Shown here: positions 805-10,860 of the stretch, one piece after another
Numbering within the stretch: position 1 is the stretch's first letter
Layout of the letters: each line of letters starts with the position of its first letter
Source of the DNA: Minisyncoccota bacterium
GTDB lineage: Bacteria; Patescibacteriota; Minisyncoccia; JAHIHE01; JAGLIN01
Direction: 5' to 3'
Assembly: GCA_041661265.1 (NCBI GenBank)
Contig: JBAZUT010000003.1
Span: 79,191 to 143,190 of the forward strand
DNA: 64,000 nucleotides
Translations under genes and position numbers: made by a program
Notes under the pieces: generated by a model
What the model was told of the DNA's origin: nothing
The model's input: only the letters and a program-made list of their open reading frames with translations
The model's database searches: none

Positions 805-944
805 GAATAGGTAACCGTGCGAGAGTTCGTTAACAATTCAGATATGTTATCACTACAAACTTTGTGTAGTTGTCCTGAACTATTTCTGCATCGTTCATAA
901 GTCCATATGTAAATATGCAACTGTGAACATTTATGATGCAACAT

Positions 945-2406
<1,462 letters not shown>

Positions 2407-2686
2407 CTAGGGAGAAGTGCGATTAATTTCGCAACTTACCTTGGTCTTCTAACTCTACGAGTTATATAAGCTGTTGGGAATGTCTCAGCTTCGAACAAAA
2501 GATGTTCCATGGACAACTACATAAGGTTTGTAACTTATATCTGAATAGCAAAGTCGCATCTAATCTCTTGCATTGGATGCGATTTTTGTTACGCGGCACT
2601 TGTAATATTATTATTTCTTTGATAAGATATTATAAGTTTCGATAAATTAAAAAACTTCTAAAATCAACAAGTAATTTGTAAACTTT

Positions 2687-2760
2687 GGGCGATTAGCTCA
2701 GTTGGCTAGAGCACTTCACTGATAATGAAGAGGTCGGAAGTTCGAGTCTTCCATCGCCCA
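2687..2760 (+). tRNA. tRNA-Ile (anticodon GAT)
   Basis: GGGCGATTAGCTCAGTTGG...GGTTCGAGTC...ATCGCCCA cloverleaf. Anticodon loop CTGATAA. CCA is not encoded. Sits in the 16S-23S spacer. Confidence 0.9.
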
Positions 2761-2931
2761 CAACAAAAACTTATAACTGATGACTTATAACGCATAACAA
2801 TAAAGAAATATTAAATTCGAGAATCCTTGCATTGTTTTATATTTATTGTATAATACAAATGTAGACGAAACTTTGAGGCGACTTGCGAGCCCGTTGCGAT
2901 GTGTTATGAGTTATAAGTTGTGAGTTGTTTT

Positions 2932-3004
2932 GGGCCCGTAGCTCAGTTGGTAGAGCACTTGCTTTGCAAGCATGGGGTCGCAGGTTCGAATCCTGTCGGG
3001 TCCA
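2932..3004 (+). tRNA. tRNA-Ala (anticodon TGC)
   Basis: GGGCCCGTAGCTCAGTTGGTAGAGC...CAGGTTCGAATCCTG...CGGGTCCA. G3:U70 identity pair present. Anticodon loop TTTGCAA. CCA is not encoded. Confidence 0.9.
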
Positions 3005-3165
3005 CTTTGAGTTCACGTGAGAGGTTGAGGCAATATAAAATGACAGATTGCTGCTATCAATATATTCCGATGATTTATTGAAGATGCGAGCAATATATAT
3101 ACTTTTGAAAATCAAACACAAATATAAATATTTTAAAATATAAAAAAAGAAAGGGGGTGGAGTAA

Positions 3166-3555
3166 ATGGAATTTTTATTCGCCAGTGATTATTTTTTTAT
3201 CATTTTCAACCAAATGGTAACATTCTATCAGAATATACTATCTGGTGGGATCGATAGAGCGTTAATCGTATTGGGCGTAGGAGCTTTTATTGTTTTCGAA
3301 ATTGATAAAGTTGCCCTACGAACAAAGATAAAGGAACGCAGAGTTGTTGCGATGACCGCAAAATGGGTGTTCATGATCATTACGATATTAATCGCCCTGG
3401 AAGAAGCGCATATCGGTAATAACACCATTCAGACTTTTTCAAGCGGTTTTGCGCTTATGATTGCTCTTTCAGGCGGCTTGGCTTTCGGACTCGGTGGACA
3501 GTATCAGGCTAAAGAAATACTTGAGGAATTTAAACACAAGATCATACAGAAGTAG
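3166..3555 (+). CDS. small membrane protein encoded inside the rRNA operon spacer (2-3 predicted TM helices)
   Basis: 129-aa ORF with a strong SD (AAAGGGGGTGG) about 8 nt upstream of the ATG. Hydrophobic helices (ALIVLGVGAFIVF, WVFMIITILIALEE, FALMIALSGGLAFGLGG). Followed by a rho-independent terminator. Confidence 0.5.
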   Translation: MEFLFASDYFFIIFNQMVTFYQNILSGGIDRALIVLGVGAFIVFEIDKVALRTKIKERRVVAMTAKWVFMIITILIALEEAHIGNNTIQTFSSGFALMIALSGGLAFGLGGQYQAKEILEEFKHKIIQK

Positions 3556-3587
3556 GATCATATATTGCAACTAGCTAGTGGCAAAAA

Positions 3588-3616
3588 TAGACAGACTTTC
3601 AGTCTGTTTTTGTCAT
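3588..3616 (+). terminator. rho-independent terminator (7-bp stem ACAGACT/AGTCTGT, loop TTC, then T-run)
   Basis: Perfect hairpin at 3591-3607 followed by TTTTGTCATTTT and preceded by an A-run. Could act in both directions. Confidence 0.55.
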
Positions 3617-3650
3617 TTTATCAGGTAATTTAGAAATTACCGACAGGCTC

Positions 3651-3679
3651 TTGACAACATTATTCATACTTGCTAATAT
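3651..3679 (+). promoter_or_regulatory. putative internal promoter upstream of 23S (TTGACA, 17 nt spacer, TAATAT)
   Basis: Consensus -35/-10 with a 17-nt spacer between the spacer-gene terminator and the 23S 5' end. Confidence 0.4.
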
Positions 3680-3835
3680 TACTCTTGTCGCTGTTTAAAA
3701 GGAAATATATTGACAACAGAAATTTGACTGAAGATTTCAGCCAAAATTGTGTTGTTAATGATTGTACGTTAACAATTGATTTAATTTGTGATTCAATGAT
3801 TAGCAATTAATAATTGCTAGTTAACCGTTTATTAG

Positions 3836-7040
<3,205 letters not shown>

Positions 7041-7171
7041 ATTTAATAGAGGTTGTATTTTAAAGATGTTTTACATCTTTAGATTACAGCTTTGGTTAAC
7101 TAGTGATTATTGATTGTTGTTTATCACAAATATACATACTTGATATTTTGAAATATCGAGTACAAGAATTC

Positions 7172-7288
7172 TCTGGTGATTTTAGCGGCGAGGTAACACC
7201 TGATCCCATTTCGAACTCAGAAGTAAAGCTCGCTTGCGCCCATGGTACTTATTCCTTACGGAATCGGGAGAGTAGGTCATTGCCGGAG
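7172..7288 (+). rRNA. rrf: 5S ribosomal RNA
   Basis: CTGGTG...AGCGGCGAGGTAACACCTGATCCCATTTCGAACTCAGAAGTAAAG...GGGAGAGTAGGTCATTGCCGGAG, followed by a T-run. Confidence 0.85.
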
Positions 7289-7362
7289 ATTTTTTGTTGG
7301 AAAAAATATTTTGACCATATGAGGTAAAAAGGTTATAATCTATTATATTACTAATAATAAAT

Positions 7363-8232
7363 ATGACTGGAATACAGAGAGCGATCAAAAAATTATCTAT
7401 CATATTGTTGATCTTGTCCTTGTTTTTTATTATTTCATGGCCTGAATTACGGCCGAAAGAAGATTCGTGCTATAACGGCAAGCTGGACTTTGGCGAAGAT
7501 GAGATAGACTGCGGCGGTATTTGTTCAACGGCATGCCCGCCTCCTGAAAAACCGCCAATGGTAGAAGATGTAAAGATCGAATGGTCCCGCGCTCTCAAGG
7601 ATGGAAATGATAATTATGACCTTATTGCAAAGATATATAACACCAATAAACACTGGGGAGCTACAAACGTCAACTATAAATTTATTATATATGGAGGTAA
7701 TAACGATGTTTTAGCAATCAAAACCGGAAGTACATACATTGTACCTCTCGGATTTTCCGAGGGTGAAGGAGTGAAATATGTAATAGAAAATAATTATGTA
7801 TCTGACAAAGAAATAACAAAGGTTGACTTTGAGCTAGATAATTTCAGATGGGCCGAAGTGAAGGATATATTGGAACTTCCGGAACTGGGCGTTGATACGA
7901 TAATAGTAAAGGACAGAAGATATGGAAAAGTGGAATCCGGTAATGAATACTATTATATTTATGGTGTAACAGAAAACACTTCCAAATACAGTTTCAGATT
8001 TGTTGATATATATGCTGTGGTGTATGATGCGCAAAACAACCCCATTGCTGCCGGTAAAACGGATCAGAACACCGTTGCGGCCGGAACAGGATGGGAATTC
8101 AGAATATTCTGGAATGATAAATTCGAAGGGGAAGTTGCAAAAGTGGACTACGTCGCTGAGACAAATATATATGAACAATCGAACTTTATGCGGGCTTATG
8201 GCACGGGAAAGAAGTACAATACCACAAAATAG
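7363..8232 (+). CDS. secreted hypothetical protein with N-terminal signal/TM and a cysteine-rich CxNGxxDxGExxxDCGGxC motif
   Basis: 289-aa ORF with a hydrophobic N-terminus (LSIILLILSLFFIISW). Its Cys motif resembles the Myxococcus-type cysteine-rich repeat also seen at 33476-36322. Confidence 0.5.
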   Translation: MTGIQRAIKKLSIILLILSLFFIISWPELRPKEDSCYNGKLDFGEDEIDCGGICSTACPPPEKPPMVEDVKIEWSRALKDGNDNYDLIAKIYNTNKHWGATNVNYKFIIYGGNNDVLAIKTGSTYIVPLGFSEGEGVKYVIENNYVSDKEITKVDFELDNFRWAEVKDILELPELGVDTIIVKDRRYGKVESGNEYYYIYGVTENTSKYSFRFVDIYAVVYDAQNNPIAAGKTDQNTVAAGTGWEFRIFWNDKFEGEVAKVDYVAETNIYEQSNFMRAYGTGKKYNTTK

Positions 8233-8244
8233 GGCGTCAAAATC

Positions 8245-9360
8245 ATGAAGATAGCATTTTTAAATAAAATCGACGTAGCGCTGTTCGTTTCTCAAACTAT
8301 TCTGATTGTTATTGGAATTATTACGATTTTTAGTACATCGTACAGCAGCAGTGGCAGCGATTTTGTGAATTTTAATAAACAGGCGATATTCGCCATTGTC
8401 GGGATAGTGGTGTTTTTTGTTATCAGTCTTGTAGATTATCGAGCTATAAAAAATTATACGGGCATCATATATGTGATCGCCTGTATTATTTTGATCTTGG
8501 TGGCTATAATGGGAAAAAATATCAGAGGAACCGCGGGATGGTTCGATCTTGGCTTTGTCAGTCTTCAGCCAGCCGAGTTCGTAAAAATAGCCATGATAAT
8601 CATCATCGCAAAATATTTTACAAAGATCGATATTTACATAAACAGCTTTAAGAAGGCAATAGTTTCCGGAATATACGTCCTGATACCGGTTTCGCTCATT
8701 ATGATGCAACCTGACATGGGAAGCGCTCTTATAATTATCTTTATATGGATAGCTATGCTGATACTATCCGGCGTGAATAAAAAATATATATTATATATAA
8801 CTATATTGGCGATCGTGTTATCGGGCATAGGGTGGCAATATGCGCTGAAAGATTATCAAAAGAGCAGAATTTTGTCATTTTTTGATTCGGAATATGACCC
8901 TATGGGAGCAGGATACAACGTCAGGCAGTCCGTGATCGCTATCGGTTCCGGAAATATATGGGGAAAAGGCCTGGGACATGGATCCCAAAGCCAATTGAAT
9001 TTTTTGCCGGAGAAGCACACCGATTTCATTTTTGCGGTCATAGCAGAGGAGATGGGATTCGTCGGAATAATCCTGGTGATTGGACTATATGGCATAATAT
9101 TTTACAGACTGCTCAGGATCGCGGAGGAAGCTGAGGATAATTTCGGGAAATATCTGGTTCTGGGAACGTCGTTACTTGTATTTTTTCATGTCGTGATCAA
9201 TATAGGCATGAATATGGGCATCATGCCCGTTACCGGAATACCGCTTCCCCTTGTGAGCTATGGCGGAAGTTCATTGGTCAGTCTTATGGTTATGTTTGGG
9301 ATAGTGAATAGTGTGTATATCAAGGGAAGGGGTTATAAATTCACTAAAGAAGAAGATTAG
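8245..9360 (+). CDS. SEDS-family peptidoglycan glycosyltransferase (FtsW/RodA)
   Basis: 371 aa, polytopic. Conserved FtsW/RodA block GAGYNVRQSVIAIGSGNIWGKGLGHGSQSQLNFLPEKHTDFIFAVIAEEMGFVG and C-terminal GIPLPLVSYGGSS. Confidence 0.85.
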   Translation: MKIAFLNKIDVALFVSQTILIVIGIITIFSTSYSSSGSDFVNFNKQAIFAIVGIVVFFVISLVDYRAIKNYTGIIYVIACIILILVAIMGKNIRGTAGWFDLGFVSLQPAEFVKIAMIIIIAKYFTKIDIYINSFKKAIVSGIYVLIPVSLIMMQPDMGSALIIIFIWIAMLILSGVNKKYILYITILAIVLSGIGWQYALKDYQKSRILSFFDSEYDPMGAGYNVRQSVIAIGSGNIWGKGLGHGSQSQLNFLPEKHTDFIFAVIAEEMGFVGIILVIGLYGIIFYRLLRIAEEAEDNFGKYLVLGTSLLVFFHVVINIGMNMGIMPVTGIPLPLVSYGGSSLVSLMVMFGIVNSVYIKGRGYKFTKEED

Positions 9361-9380
9361 CAACGTCCGGAAAAGAATAA

Positions 9381-9400
9381 ATGTGGCTTTGGCTCCACAT
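9381..9400 (+). terminator. hairpin (ATGTGG...CCACAT) after FtsW/RodA; weak terminator candidate
   Basis: Inverted repeat directly after the stop codon. No strong T-run follows. Confidence 0.25.
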
Positions 9401-9459
9401 AATATATTTACATTGAATATCATATGTGTTAATATGTTTAAGTTATCATAAATAAAACT

Positions 9460-10860
9460 ATGGCTGAAAATAAGACTGAGTTTTTCAATAAAATAGTATC
9501 GCTTTGCAAAAGACGGGGATTTATTTATCCCTCAAGTGAGATATATGGGGGATTCGCGGCGATCTATGATTATGGACATTACGGAACGCTTCTGAAGAAC
9601 AATATACGCGATTCGTGGTGGAAGAGCATGGTTCAGATGCGCGATGATGTCGTGGGACTGGATAGCGCTATCTTTATGCATCCAAAAACATGGGTCGCAT
9701 CGGGACATGTCGGGGGATTTAACGATCCCCAGATTGACTGCAAGAAATGCAAAAGCAGATTTCGGGCAGACCATTTTCTTAAGAATTTCGGCATAAATGC
9801 AGACAAAATGCCCTTGGTTGAGATCAATAAGCATTTGGATGATTTAAGGAAAGAGAAAAAGCTTAAATGCCAGAATTGCGGATCGACCGAAATTACGCAA
9901 GCAAAAATATTTTCTTTGATGGTAAAATCAAATATAGGATCGCCGACTGATGAGCTGAAAGAAGAGAATGTGGTATATCTCCGGCCGGAAACCTGCGGGG
10001 GGATATATCTTGAATTCAAGAATACCATTGATTCGTTGCACAAAAAACTTCCTTTCGGGATCGCGCAAGTCGGCAAGGCTTTCAGGAATGAGATCGTTGC
10101 GAGACAGTTCATATTCAGAACGAGAGAATTCGAACAGATGGAAATGCAGTACTTTTTGCACCCCTTGATGATGAAAGATAAATATGAATCATGGAAAAAG
10201 GCGAGATGGCAATGGTATCTGGATAATGGCATCTCAGAAAAAGAGATCAAGTGGTATAAGCACGAGAAACTTGCCCATTACGCATCAGAAGCATATGACA
10301 TTACGTATAATTTCAAATCTCTAGGTGACTTCGATGAGGTTGAGGGGATACATGCGAGAGGCGACTGGGATCTTTCCCAGCATTCGAAATGTTCAGGCGT
10401 AGATCTTTCATATACAGATGAAAAAACGAAGGAAAAGTTCATACCTCACATCATGGAAACGTCAGTTGGACTGAATAGATTACTGTTTATGTTCCTGGAT
10501 AATGCGTATTGTGAGGAAAAAGTGGGAGATGAAACGAGAGTTGTACTGAAACTGCCAATGCATCTTGCCCCAGTCAAAGTTGCAGTATTCCCGCTTCTGA
10601 AGAACAAGCCGGATCTGGTGCAAAAAGCACGTGAAGTTTATGACGCGCTCAAGCCATATTTCATGTGTGAATTCGACGATAACGGAAATATAGGGAAGAG
10701 ATACAGGAGACAGGATGAGATAGGGACGCCACATTGCGTTACTGTTGACTTCGATACGATCAGTGACGAAACCGTAACTGTCAGAGACAGGGACACTATG
10801 AAACAGGAACGCATTAAGATCGCGGAATTACCTGACTTTTTGAAAGTAAAATTGGCCTAA
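9460..10860 (+). CDS. glyQS: glycine--tRNA ligase (class II, dimeric GlyRS)
   Basis: 466 aa. N-terminal FYPSSEIYGGFAAIYDYGHYGTLLKNNIRDSWW, class II motifs, and a C-terminal anticodon-binding region typical of alpha2 GlyRS. Confidence 0.88.
   Translation: MAENKTEFFNKIVSLCKRRGFIYPSSEIYGGFAAIYDYGHYGTLLKNNIRDSWWKSMVQMRDDVVGLDSAIFMHPKTWVASGHVGGFNDPQIDCKKCKSRFRADHFLKNFGINADKMPLVEINKHLDDLRKEKKLKCQNCGSTEITQAKIFSLMVKSNIGSPTDELKEENVVYLRPETCGGIYLEFKNTIDSLHKKLPFGIAQVGKAFRNEIVARQFIFRTREFEQMEMQYFLHPLMMKDKYESWKKARWQWYLDNGISEKEIKWYKHEKLAHYASEAYDITYNFKSLGDFDEVEGIHARGDWDLSQHSKCSGVDLSYTDEKTKEKFIPHIMETSVGLNRLLFMFLDNAYCEEKVGDETRVVLKLPMHLAPVKVAVFPLLKNKPDLVQKAREVYDALKPYFMCEFDDNGNIGKRYRRQDEIGTPHCVTVDFDTISDETVTVRDRDTMKQERIKIAELPDFLKVKLA

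Follow-up and report, generated by a model that had tools for sequence, protein, structure and literature searches.

When the genes for ribosomal RNA (rRNA) lie side by side in canonical order, are they transcribed as one operon, and how is a protein-coding gene standing among them expressed? This question is raised by an rRNA locus in a 64-kb stretch of contig JBAZUT010000003.1 (the window, within which all positions are given unless another locus is named). The cluster runs 16S-tRNA-Ile-tRNA-Ala-23S-5S, the canonical order, with every gene on the plus strand: 16S rRNA (945-2406, its anti-Shine-Dalgarno tail GATCACCTCCTTT kept), tRNA-Ile(GAT) (2687-2761), tRNA-Ala(UGC) (2932-3005, without an encoded CCA), 23S rRNA (3834-7046) and 5S rRNA (7172-7288), the last followed directly by TTTTTTGTT, up to 7298, as the end of the 23S-5S unit. 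The rRNAs were located with Rfam, and the tRNAs with Rfam and ARAGORN. Between tRNA-Ala and 23S, also on the plus strand, the list of open reading frames (ORFs) and the homologues place ORF129 (3166-3555), the coding sequence of a predicted membrane protein of 129 amino acids (aa).

The spacer separating 16S from 23S is not free of protein genes or signals, as it holds a coding sequence under selection, a conserved terminator and a conserved consensus promoter. We consider it probable that the locus is contiguous but transcriptionally modular, with ORF129 ending at its own terminator and 23S-5S starting from its own promoter. Under this proposal 16S, the tRNAs and 23S-5S would each be served by their own signals within a physically contiguous cluster. 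ORF129, a putative three- to four-helix membrane protein without a conserved promoter of its own, would share a transcript with tRNA-Ala that starts at a promoter lying between the tRNA genes and/or arises by read-through from upstream. Its mRNA would be freed by tRNA 3' processing and translated via an unusually long Shine-Dalgarno (SD) sequence, and would end at a conserved intrinsic terminator. The 23S-5S transcript would then start at a strong sigma-70-type extended -10 promoter about 150 nucleotides (nt) before 23S, with a boxA-like element and then the 23S processing stem downstream of that promoter. The gene order, the purifying selection, the conservation of SD, hairpin and promoter, and the homology of the protein family are directly established.

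The gene between tRNA-Ala and 23S

A protein identical to that of ORF129 is recorded in NCBI as MFA6096600.1 ('hypothetical protein WC788_03165 [Candidatus Paceibacterota bacterium]'), and the host is on this ground an uncultured bacterium of the Candidate Phyla Radiation (CPR), or Patescibacteria. A search of 5.8 billion clusters returned five close homologues, each exactly 129 aa long, and the contigs of these five, plus two from a metagenome scan, make up the ORF129 loci, of which L001-L006 are relatives bearing the gene and serve as comparison loci for the window. The assemblies are independent and come from different samples (JGI, NCBI, ENA), and the agreement of seven assemblies from different projects rules out an assembly chimera. 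The initial annotation had proposed a 129-aa ORF after tRNA-Ala and, as a check, a comparison with related rrn operons; this comparison upheld the proposal, as ORF129 is conserved at the same place in six other assemblies. With the window included, seven share the arrangement tRNA-Ala, ORF, 23S, at a protein identity of 66-95%. The order is 16S, tRNA-Ile, tRNA-Ala, ORF, (23S) in L002, L005 and L006, and 16S, tRNA-Ile, an extra block, tRNA-Ala, ORF, 23S, 5S in L001, while L003 and L004, both short contigs, likewise have the block of ORF, terminator and promoter.

Across the seven loci the pairwise ratio of nonsynonymous to synonymous divergence (dN/dS) is 0.04-0.13, over dS values that range from 0.3 up to saturation. 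Changes at third codon positions are 2-3 times commoner than those at first and second positions combined, and exactly 129 codons and an intact start codon are found in every locus (7/7). With dN/dS this low despite synonymous saturation, neither an ORF arisen by chance nor a fragment in decay is tenable, and by these measures of sequence change ORF129 is a real gene under strong purifying selection. The identity of 16S to that of the window is 98.8% in L001 and 99.5% in L006, at least 98.8% throughout, so the ORF129 loci form one genus-level clade. A scan of viral contigs with the family alignment gave no match. In L001 the spacer has gained a block (8770-9605 of that locus) with a second, divergent and intact tRNA-Ile(GAT) (8888-8962) and a 148-aa ORF (9022-9468) with no Pfam match. 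In the resident tRNA-Ile of L001 (9532-9605) the 5' acceptor strand is lost (GGGGTTT against 3' ATCGCCC), and the gene resembles a pseudo-tRNA. The 16S-23S spacer seems prone to acquiring small genes.

The hydropathy of the ORF129 protein peaks at residues ~24-51, 58-80 and 88-111, with a moderately hydrophobic N-terminus, and an AlphaFold2 model built with 41 sequences (pLDDT, the predicted local distance difference test, of 80.7) is all-helical, with five helices; it supersedes an earlier run with 8 sequences that was poor (pLDDT 58). The three hydrophobic segments and the all-helical model are in agreement with the transmembrane (TM) helices predicted at the outset. In an exhaustive search with a profile, 1156 relatives came out at E <= 0.001, among them P0009 (E = 4e-30). 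Typical family members have 215-235 aa and two units, and ORF129 matches their C-terminal half; since many relatives match ORF129 with their N-terminal half too, the family is one of internal duplication. By BLASTP the closest full-length relative is P0010 (230 aa, 3e-17), the N-terminus of which matches residues 1-49 of ORF129 and the C-terminal unit of which matches residues 14-126, and because of this double match ORF129 looks like a one-unit derivative. Other one-unit family members exist, of 112-131 aa.

Relatives in this family lead to the mechanosensitive channel MscS. P0006, P0009, P0010 and P0047 reach PF05552 (MS_channel_1st_1, 'Mechanosensitive ion channel, conserved TM helix'), ORF129 itself weakly matches the NCBIfam model 'msc' NF033912 (E = 0.008), and the family profile aligns with residues 24-115 of E. 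coli MscS, which cover TM1, TM2 and the Gly/Ala-rich pore helix TM3a (E = 3e-8). In contrast to MscS, ORF129 has no match to PF00924, the vestibule, and nothing in it matches the cytoplasmic beta or alpha-beta domains; its chain continues for only about 17 residues beyond the TM3-like helix, and it consists of a single unit where its relatives mostly have two. The protein is thus best described as a putative one-unit homologue of the TM1-TM3 module of MscS, with a predicted MscS-type function that may include channel activity, and not as an MscS channel proper. The sole direct Pfam match of ORF129, the sub-threshold 'Lamprin', is spurious. The view taken in the initial annotation, that the ORF is not a homing endonuclease, is confirmed, and the small membrane protein proposed there is now related to the MscS transmembrane domain.

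Transcription signals along the cluster

Downstream of ORF129 an intrinsic terminator is found at 3577-3619 on the plus strand, composed of an A-tract, the stem GACAGAC/GTCTGTT and a U-tract. The hairpin core occupies 3589-3609, pairing of the A-tract with the U-tract extends the stem to 3577-3617, and TTTTTGTCATTTT follows. The fold has an energy of -18.9 kcal/mol (z = -3.4), none of 200 shuffles being as stable, and across all loci the folding energies of the terminator lie between -16 and -20 kcal/mol, with z from -2.6 to -5.1. The hairpin GACAAAAATAGACAGAC-loop-GTCTGTTTTTGTC is kept after the ORF129 stop codon, with a loop that varies in L003, L004 and L005. L001 has a different stem, AACGGAUU/GGUCCGUU, seen as AAACGAAAACGGAUU...GGUCCGUUUUUGUUUUUUUU in the alignment of the ORF129 loci, in the same design of A-tract, hairpin and T-run. 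As the stem has changed while the fold and the T-run are kept, it is the structure and not the sequence that appears to be preserved, on evidence that comes from few sequences. The tail TTTTTGT is common to this terminator, the hairpin after 16S described below and the end of 5S. Just 3' of the ORF129 stop codon lies the palindrome ACTAGCTAGT (3570-3579, plus strand), which reads ACTGGCCAGT in L002, L005 and L006, a symmetric double change by which self-complementarity is maintained, and the palindrome could form a small hairpin or be bound by a protein.

From the terminator to the promoter the sequence is unalignable, with a length of 40 nt in the window versus about 95 nt in L001. It is followed by the 23S promoter block (3647-3702, plus strand), a 56-nt block, GCTCTTGACAACATTATT[CG]ATACTTGCTAATATTACTCTTGTCGCTGTTT[AG]AAAG, that hardly varies among the six loci extending this far. 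Within the block stand the -35 hexamer TTGACA (3651-3656), a spacing of 17 nt and the -10 hexamer TAATAT (3674-3679), which is extended by TG at 3671-3672 (TGcTAATAT, 3671-3679), and then GCTGTTTAAAAGG at 3690-3702. Matches to TTGACA-N17-TAWWAT number 3 in the 64 kb versus 0.07 expected, and two of the three lie in the rRNA locus (674 and 3651). The site at 3651 accordingly has what marks a promoter of the sigma-70 type: hexamers 17 nt apart, the TG, and conservation above the neutral rate. Further downstream, in the 23S leader, is the second copy (3767-3777, plus strand) of a boxA-like 11-mer, CGTTAACAATT, that occurs twice in the 64 kb versus 0.02 times expected, once in each rRNA leader, and that resembles E. 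coli boxA. The 5' arm of the 23S processing stem (3804-3826, plus strand) pairs with 7094-7116, 3' of 23S, as an inverted repeat that is 87% complementary over 23 nt, and this stem lies wholly downstream of the 23S promoter. Both signals that the initial annotation had placed between ORF129 and 23S have held up: the hairpin with its T-run forms a stable fold whose design is kept in L001, the most diverged of the relatives, and the TTGACA-17-TAATAT promoter is of a rare pattern, stands in a near-invariant block and has analogues in distant relatives.

These analogues come from wider loci fetched via the downstream neighbour FtsW, whose best matches (Moranbacteria, Paceibacteria, Saccharibacteria) share no more than about 50% identity. 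Nine FtsW-matched loci still have 23S and/or 5S upstream of FtsW. In the three of these whose upstream sequence is long enough, L029 (Paceibacteria), L025 (Moranbacteria) and L023, no 16S is found within 3.6-5.3 kb upstream of 23S-5S, and protein genes such as murD (in L029) lie upstream of 23S instead. All three have a consensus-type promoter before 23S, with a similar short motif after it: TTGACA-17-TATAAT and then CGCTTTAAAAAG in L029, 47 nt after a tRNA-Ala; TTGACA...TATAAG and then CCGCTTTAGAAAC in L025; and TTGACA-17-TATTAT and then CGTCTAAAAAA in L023. Promoters at this position in such distant loci indicate that a separate promoter for 23S-5S characterises the class, and in the genus of the window, where 16S and the tRNAs still adjoin 23S, the arrangement appears intermediate. 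Unlinked rRNA genes are common in Patescibacteria and in small-genome lineages (Brewer et al., 10.1101/705046). Among the same distant loci, L023 has a 1.15-kb gap between 23S and 5S (7541-8694), L021 has a group I intron in 23S (874-1134), and the 23S genes of L025 (5288-8867) and L023 are 3.6-3.9 kb long, with large insertions.

Signals are also found before 16S and around the tRNA genes. Two candidate 16S promoters in tandem on the plus strand, P1 (674-702, TTGACA-17-TATTAT) and P2 (777-804, TTGACA-16-TATTAT), both show constraint like that of the 23S block, the block of P2 being invariant in the window, L006 and L001. They are followed by the first copy of the boxA-like 11-mer in the 16S leader (828-838, plus strand) and by the arms of the 16S processing stem (854-875 and 2511-2532). 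Just after this stem lies a terminator-like hairpin with TTTTTGT (2553-2589, plus strand), with a 12-bp stem, a 7-nt loop and a folding energy of -24 kcal/mol (z = -5.2). Every locus conserves this hairpin, with a change from G-U to A-U in L005 and L006, and it is terminator-like in L001 as well. Before tRNA-Ile a conserved alignment block holds the promoter-like TTGTAA-17-TAAGAT (2600-2628, plus strand), with TAATAT as its -10 in L002, L005 and L006; it matches the consensus weakly and is at most a candidate tRNA-Ile promoter. Before tRNA-Ala the promoter-like TTGCAT-16-TATAAT (2827-2854, plus strand) is the probable promoter of a unit of tRNA-Ala and ORF129, and the aligned position reads TTGGCA-17-TATAAT in L005 (11/12) and TTGCGT-17-TATACT in L001. 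Locus alignments and promoter scans gave no conserved promoter-like site between tRNA-Ala and the SD of ORF129. With such a site conserved before tRNA-Ala and none after it, ORF129 is most likely the distal part of the tRNA-Ala transcript, and, as tRNA-Ala has no encoded CCA, endonucleolytic 3' processing of the tRNA would free the ORF129 mRNA. The cluster may therefore comprise four transcription units, namely 16S, tRNA-Ile, tRNA-Ala with the ORF, and 23S-5S. The predicted ride of ORF129 on the tRNA-Ala transcript, the terminator-like hairpin after 16S with the promoter-like sites before the tRNAs, and the exceptional character of the SD go beyond the initial annotation.

The alternative with most in its favour is a single co-transcript, in which polymerase from the 16S promoters, protected by boxA and Nus, reads through the hairpin into 23S. 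The hairpin would then be an mRNA 3' stabiliser or processing site, and the promoter block a leader, an antitermination element or an auxiliary promoter. It is consistent with this that all genes lie on one strand in canonical order, that the 1427-nt internal transcribed spacer (ITS) between 16S and 23S is under the 1500-bp limit for 'linked' genes, that the boxA-like 11-mer stands in both leaders, as boxA does in co-transcribed E. coli operons, and that the terminator has just 3 G-C pairs in the core of its A/U-rich stem. The conserved positions, however, are exactly the -35 hexamer, the 17-nt spacing, the TG and the -10 hexamer, relatives without an upstream 16S bear the same promoter arrangement before 23S, L001 keeps hairpin and T-run by means of a different stem, and rrn antitermination acts mainly on Rho-dependent and not on intrinsic terminators; on balance we hold a single co-transcript to be unlikely. 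It is highly improbable that ORF129 is no more than a functionless fragment of a two-unit PF05552 gene, recently arrived as a passenger or already decaying, and kept by rRNA linkage alone. Its length, about half that of the 215-235-aa members, its resemblance to P0010 minus residues ~50-113 and its narrow distribution would fit such an origin, but this is contradicted by purifying selection over saturated synonymous divergence, by a length and start codon that are intact and an SD and terminator that are conserved in the seven loci, and by the occurrence elsewhere of other single-unit members. An insertion of the mobile-element or homing-endonuclease type into the rRNA locus is hardly credible either. 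Insertions in CPR rRNA genes are described as well known in a passage of 10.1101/705046 that cites Brown et al. 2015, the 23S of L021 has its group I intron, and L001 has acquired its extra block of tRNA-Ile and 148-aa ORF in this very spacer; ORF129, however, stands in the spacer and not inside an rRNA gene, its position is stable across saturated synonymous divergence, Pfam and NCBIfam scans found in it no endonuclease (LAGLIDADG, GIY-YIG, HNH), transposase or integrase domain, and no flanking repeats were noticed in the sequence or in inverted-repeat scans, direct repeats not having been searched for. The pseudogene, homing-endonuclease and mobile-element readings of ORF129 were rejected on this evidence of selection, domains and position.

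Transcriptional modularity is thus the reading that we prefer, and beside the A/U-rich terminator stem several further points weigh against it and against the accompanying view of the protein. A polymerase modified at the boxA-like site of the 16S leader might pass the terminator, so that 23S would be transcribed from both promoters, and the candidate tRNA-Ala promoter is only a modest match to the consensus in the window. Transcript boundaries, co-transcription with tRNA-Ala, and the translation and membrane role of ORF129 are predictions made from sequence. All conservation of ORF129 is supplied by the one narrow clade with its near-identical 16S, and no copy was found in 185,579 GTDB species representatives, which means either that the clade is missing from that set or that its metagenome-assembled genomes are without the rRNA locus. 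As to MscS, ORF129 has no PF05552 match at the Pfam gathering score, the MscS chains among the top Foldseek matches in PDB are weak (E > 1), and a profile of five sequences from the ORF129 clade found no match among PDB sequences, so that the link to MscS is transitive, via the wider family.

Shine-Dalgarno sequences of ORF129 and its family

The SD of ORF129 is an extended one, GAAAGGGGGTGG (3149-3160, plus strand), in which 12 nt can pair with the 3' tail of 16S, two of the pairs being G-U, and it ends 5 nt before the ATG. The predicted duplex with the 16S tail has an energy of -20.1 kcal/mol, stronger than for any 17-mer in a random sample of 2000 from the window (minimum -17.6, median -3.1 kcal/mol) and than for the best candidate start of each of 57 long window ORFs. 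The motif GAAAGGRGGTGR, at up to one mismatch, is found nowhere else in the 64 kb except in the 16S tail itself. In the alignment of all seven loci the SD and start, GAAAGGGGGTG[GA]A[GA]TAAATG, are nearly invariant, and divergence is unrestrained over the 140 nt from tRNA-Ala to the SD. An SD described initially as near-perfect is thus, more than that, unique in the window, the strongest in duplex formation and nearly invariant among relatives.

The setting of this SD is a genome that makes little use of such sequences. Among ~55 long window ORFs the region before the first ATG has a median of -1.5 kcal/mol versus -3.1 kcal/mol at random, and when the best of all candidate starts is taken the long ORFs reach -6.7 kcal/mol versus -7.1 kcal/mol expected, which is not above chance. 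Regions upstream of the window ORFs are simply A/T-rich, SD-poor starts being found for example at 7363, 8245, 9460, 12015 and 18067, and 16S nonetheless keeps its anti-SD. As judged by these duplex energies the window genome is almost without SD sequences, and ORF129 is an outlier.

Extending the survey to nine independent lineages of the family, with duplex energies again computed against the 16S tail, gave an extreme SD of 11-12 nt, of the GAAAGGAGGTGA type, in seven of the nine. Energies are -20.1 kcal/mol in the window and -19.6 kcal/mol in L001 for the window clade, -21.5 kcal/mol for both P0006 (L007) and P0010 (L011), -20.4 kcal/mol for P0012 (L095), -17.5 kcal/mol for P0014 (L096), -21.3 kcal/mol for P0015 (L100) and -22.1 kcal/mol for P0016 (L098); P0009 (L092) and P0047 (L009), at -1.4 and -0.9 kcal/mol, have none. 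Of about 30 genes that neighbour them on these contigs nearly all lie above -6 kcal/mol, and are in this sense SD-less. Genes of the family tend to adjoin translation genes (rplS-UPF0102 in L007 and L092, rplS in L095), or lie near tRNA genes (the window, L098, L100, L096). The homologues P0015 (L100, 3571-4881) and P0016 (L098, 3698-4001) are inside tRNA clusters, in the order tRNA-Arg(CCT), tRNA-Ala(CGC), a duplicated 3' part of that tRNA-Ala, the gene, and tRNA-Ala(GGC), a setting that echoes the arrangement of tRNA-Ala and ORF129. A 51-aa ORF at position 5003 of L100 also has a strong SD (-16.8 kcal/mol).

Among Parcubacteria an anti-SD motif can be detected in no more than 48%, and bS21 is often absent (PMC9297842), and in SD-blind Bacteroidia the lone strong-SD gene is rpsU, under anti-SD-dependent autoregulation (PMC7797042, PMC13000453). 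The extreme SDs of seven of nine lineages among SD-less neighbours, together with the proximity to genes of the translation machinery, raise the tentative and rather doubtful possibility that the MscS-TM-like family is among the very few mRNAs that depend on the anti-SD, under dedicated translational control tied to the state or supply of ribosomes. The likeness to rpsU (bS21) of Bacteroidia is that of a nearly SD-less genome that has an anti-SD, and of one translation-linked gene with a strong and conserved SD. In contrast to rpsU, ORF129 would encode a membrane protein and not a ribosomal protein, and no autoregulatory logic is evident, so that the comparison is one of analogy only.

An intermediate arrangement of rRNA genes

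Other features of the locus lie within and after 23S. The 23S gene is 3213 nt long versus 2925 nt for the model, and contains an AT-rich expansion (4166-4300, 14% GC) with an imperfect inverted repeat at 4189-4291, as well as smaller expansions near 4068 and 4532; all of these are missing from the 23S of L029, and no ORF was noticed in them. Directly after the 5S T-run a near-consensus promoter, TTGACC-17-TATAAT (11/12), is found at 7311-7339, before a gene of 289 aa (7363-8232) with no assigned function that is followed by FtsW, and the gene order 23S-5S-X-FtsW is kept across distant CPR relatives. Complementarities between 1998-2022 and 3135-3159, and between 3662-3677 and 3799-3814, were treated as chance.

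Clusters with a large distance between 16S and 23S have protein-coding DNA between the two rRNA genes. In Borrelia burgdorferi three transcripts, of 16S with tRNA-Ala, of tRNA-Ile, and of 23S-5S, were distinguished by reverse transcription PCR (PMC3037291). The window locus resembles such split or unlinked clusters, of Borrelia and of Patescibacteria, in having separate promoters for 16S and for 23S-5S and tRNAs as small units, and differs from them in that its genes adjoin in canonical order, with a single small intervening gene, and in that separate transcription is predicted. Internal promoters, including the riRNA promoter, are described within E. coli rrn operons (PMC5179076), where they likewise decouple parts of a composite rRNA-tRNA operon; unlike the riRNA promoter, the internal promoter of the window would drive 23S-5S and not a spacer tRNA. 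As regards ORF129, its closest parallel is with the mRNA of tufB. The E. coli thrU-tyrU-glyT-thrT-tufB operon yields a co-transcript of tRNA and mRNA, and the likeness is of an mRNA downstream of a tRNA on one transcript, freed by tRNA processing; the cargo here differs in being a putative small membrane protein and not a translation factor. The proposed mechanisms are all already known, and what is new is this instance of them: the compact intermediate form, the type of cargo gene and the SD pattern.

According to the criterion of Brewer et al. (10.1101/705046), rRNA genes are unlinked if more than 1500 bp separate 16S and 23S. With its ITS of 1427 nt the window is on this basis 'linked', and L001, with one of 2112 nt, is 'unlinked'. 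Amplicon work across 16S-ITS-23S, and a classing of genes as linked or unlinked by distance only, would misjudge such loci. With a classical operon on one side and the fully unlinked genes of L023, L025 and L029 on the other, the locus looks like a form in between, and as such it shows at sequence resolution a stage between the rRNA operon of textbooks and the unlinked genes frequent in CPR. It suggests an order for the break-up of the operon, in which internal promoters come first and physical separation later. Dependence of the MscS-TM-like family on the anti-SD, if true, might help to explain why the anti-SD has been retained. Extreme SDs in otherwise SD-less genomes give a concrete handle on the remaining use of SD and anti-SD in CPR, and this side observation may matter more than the rRNA locus itself.

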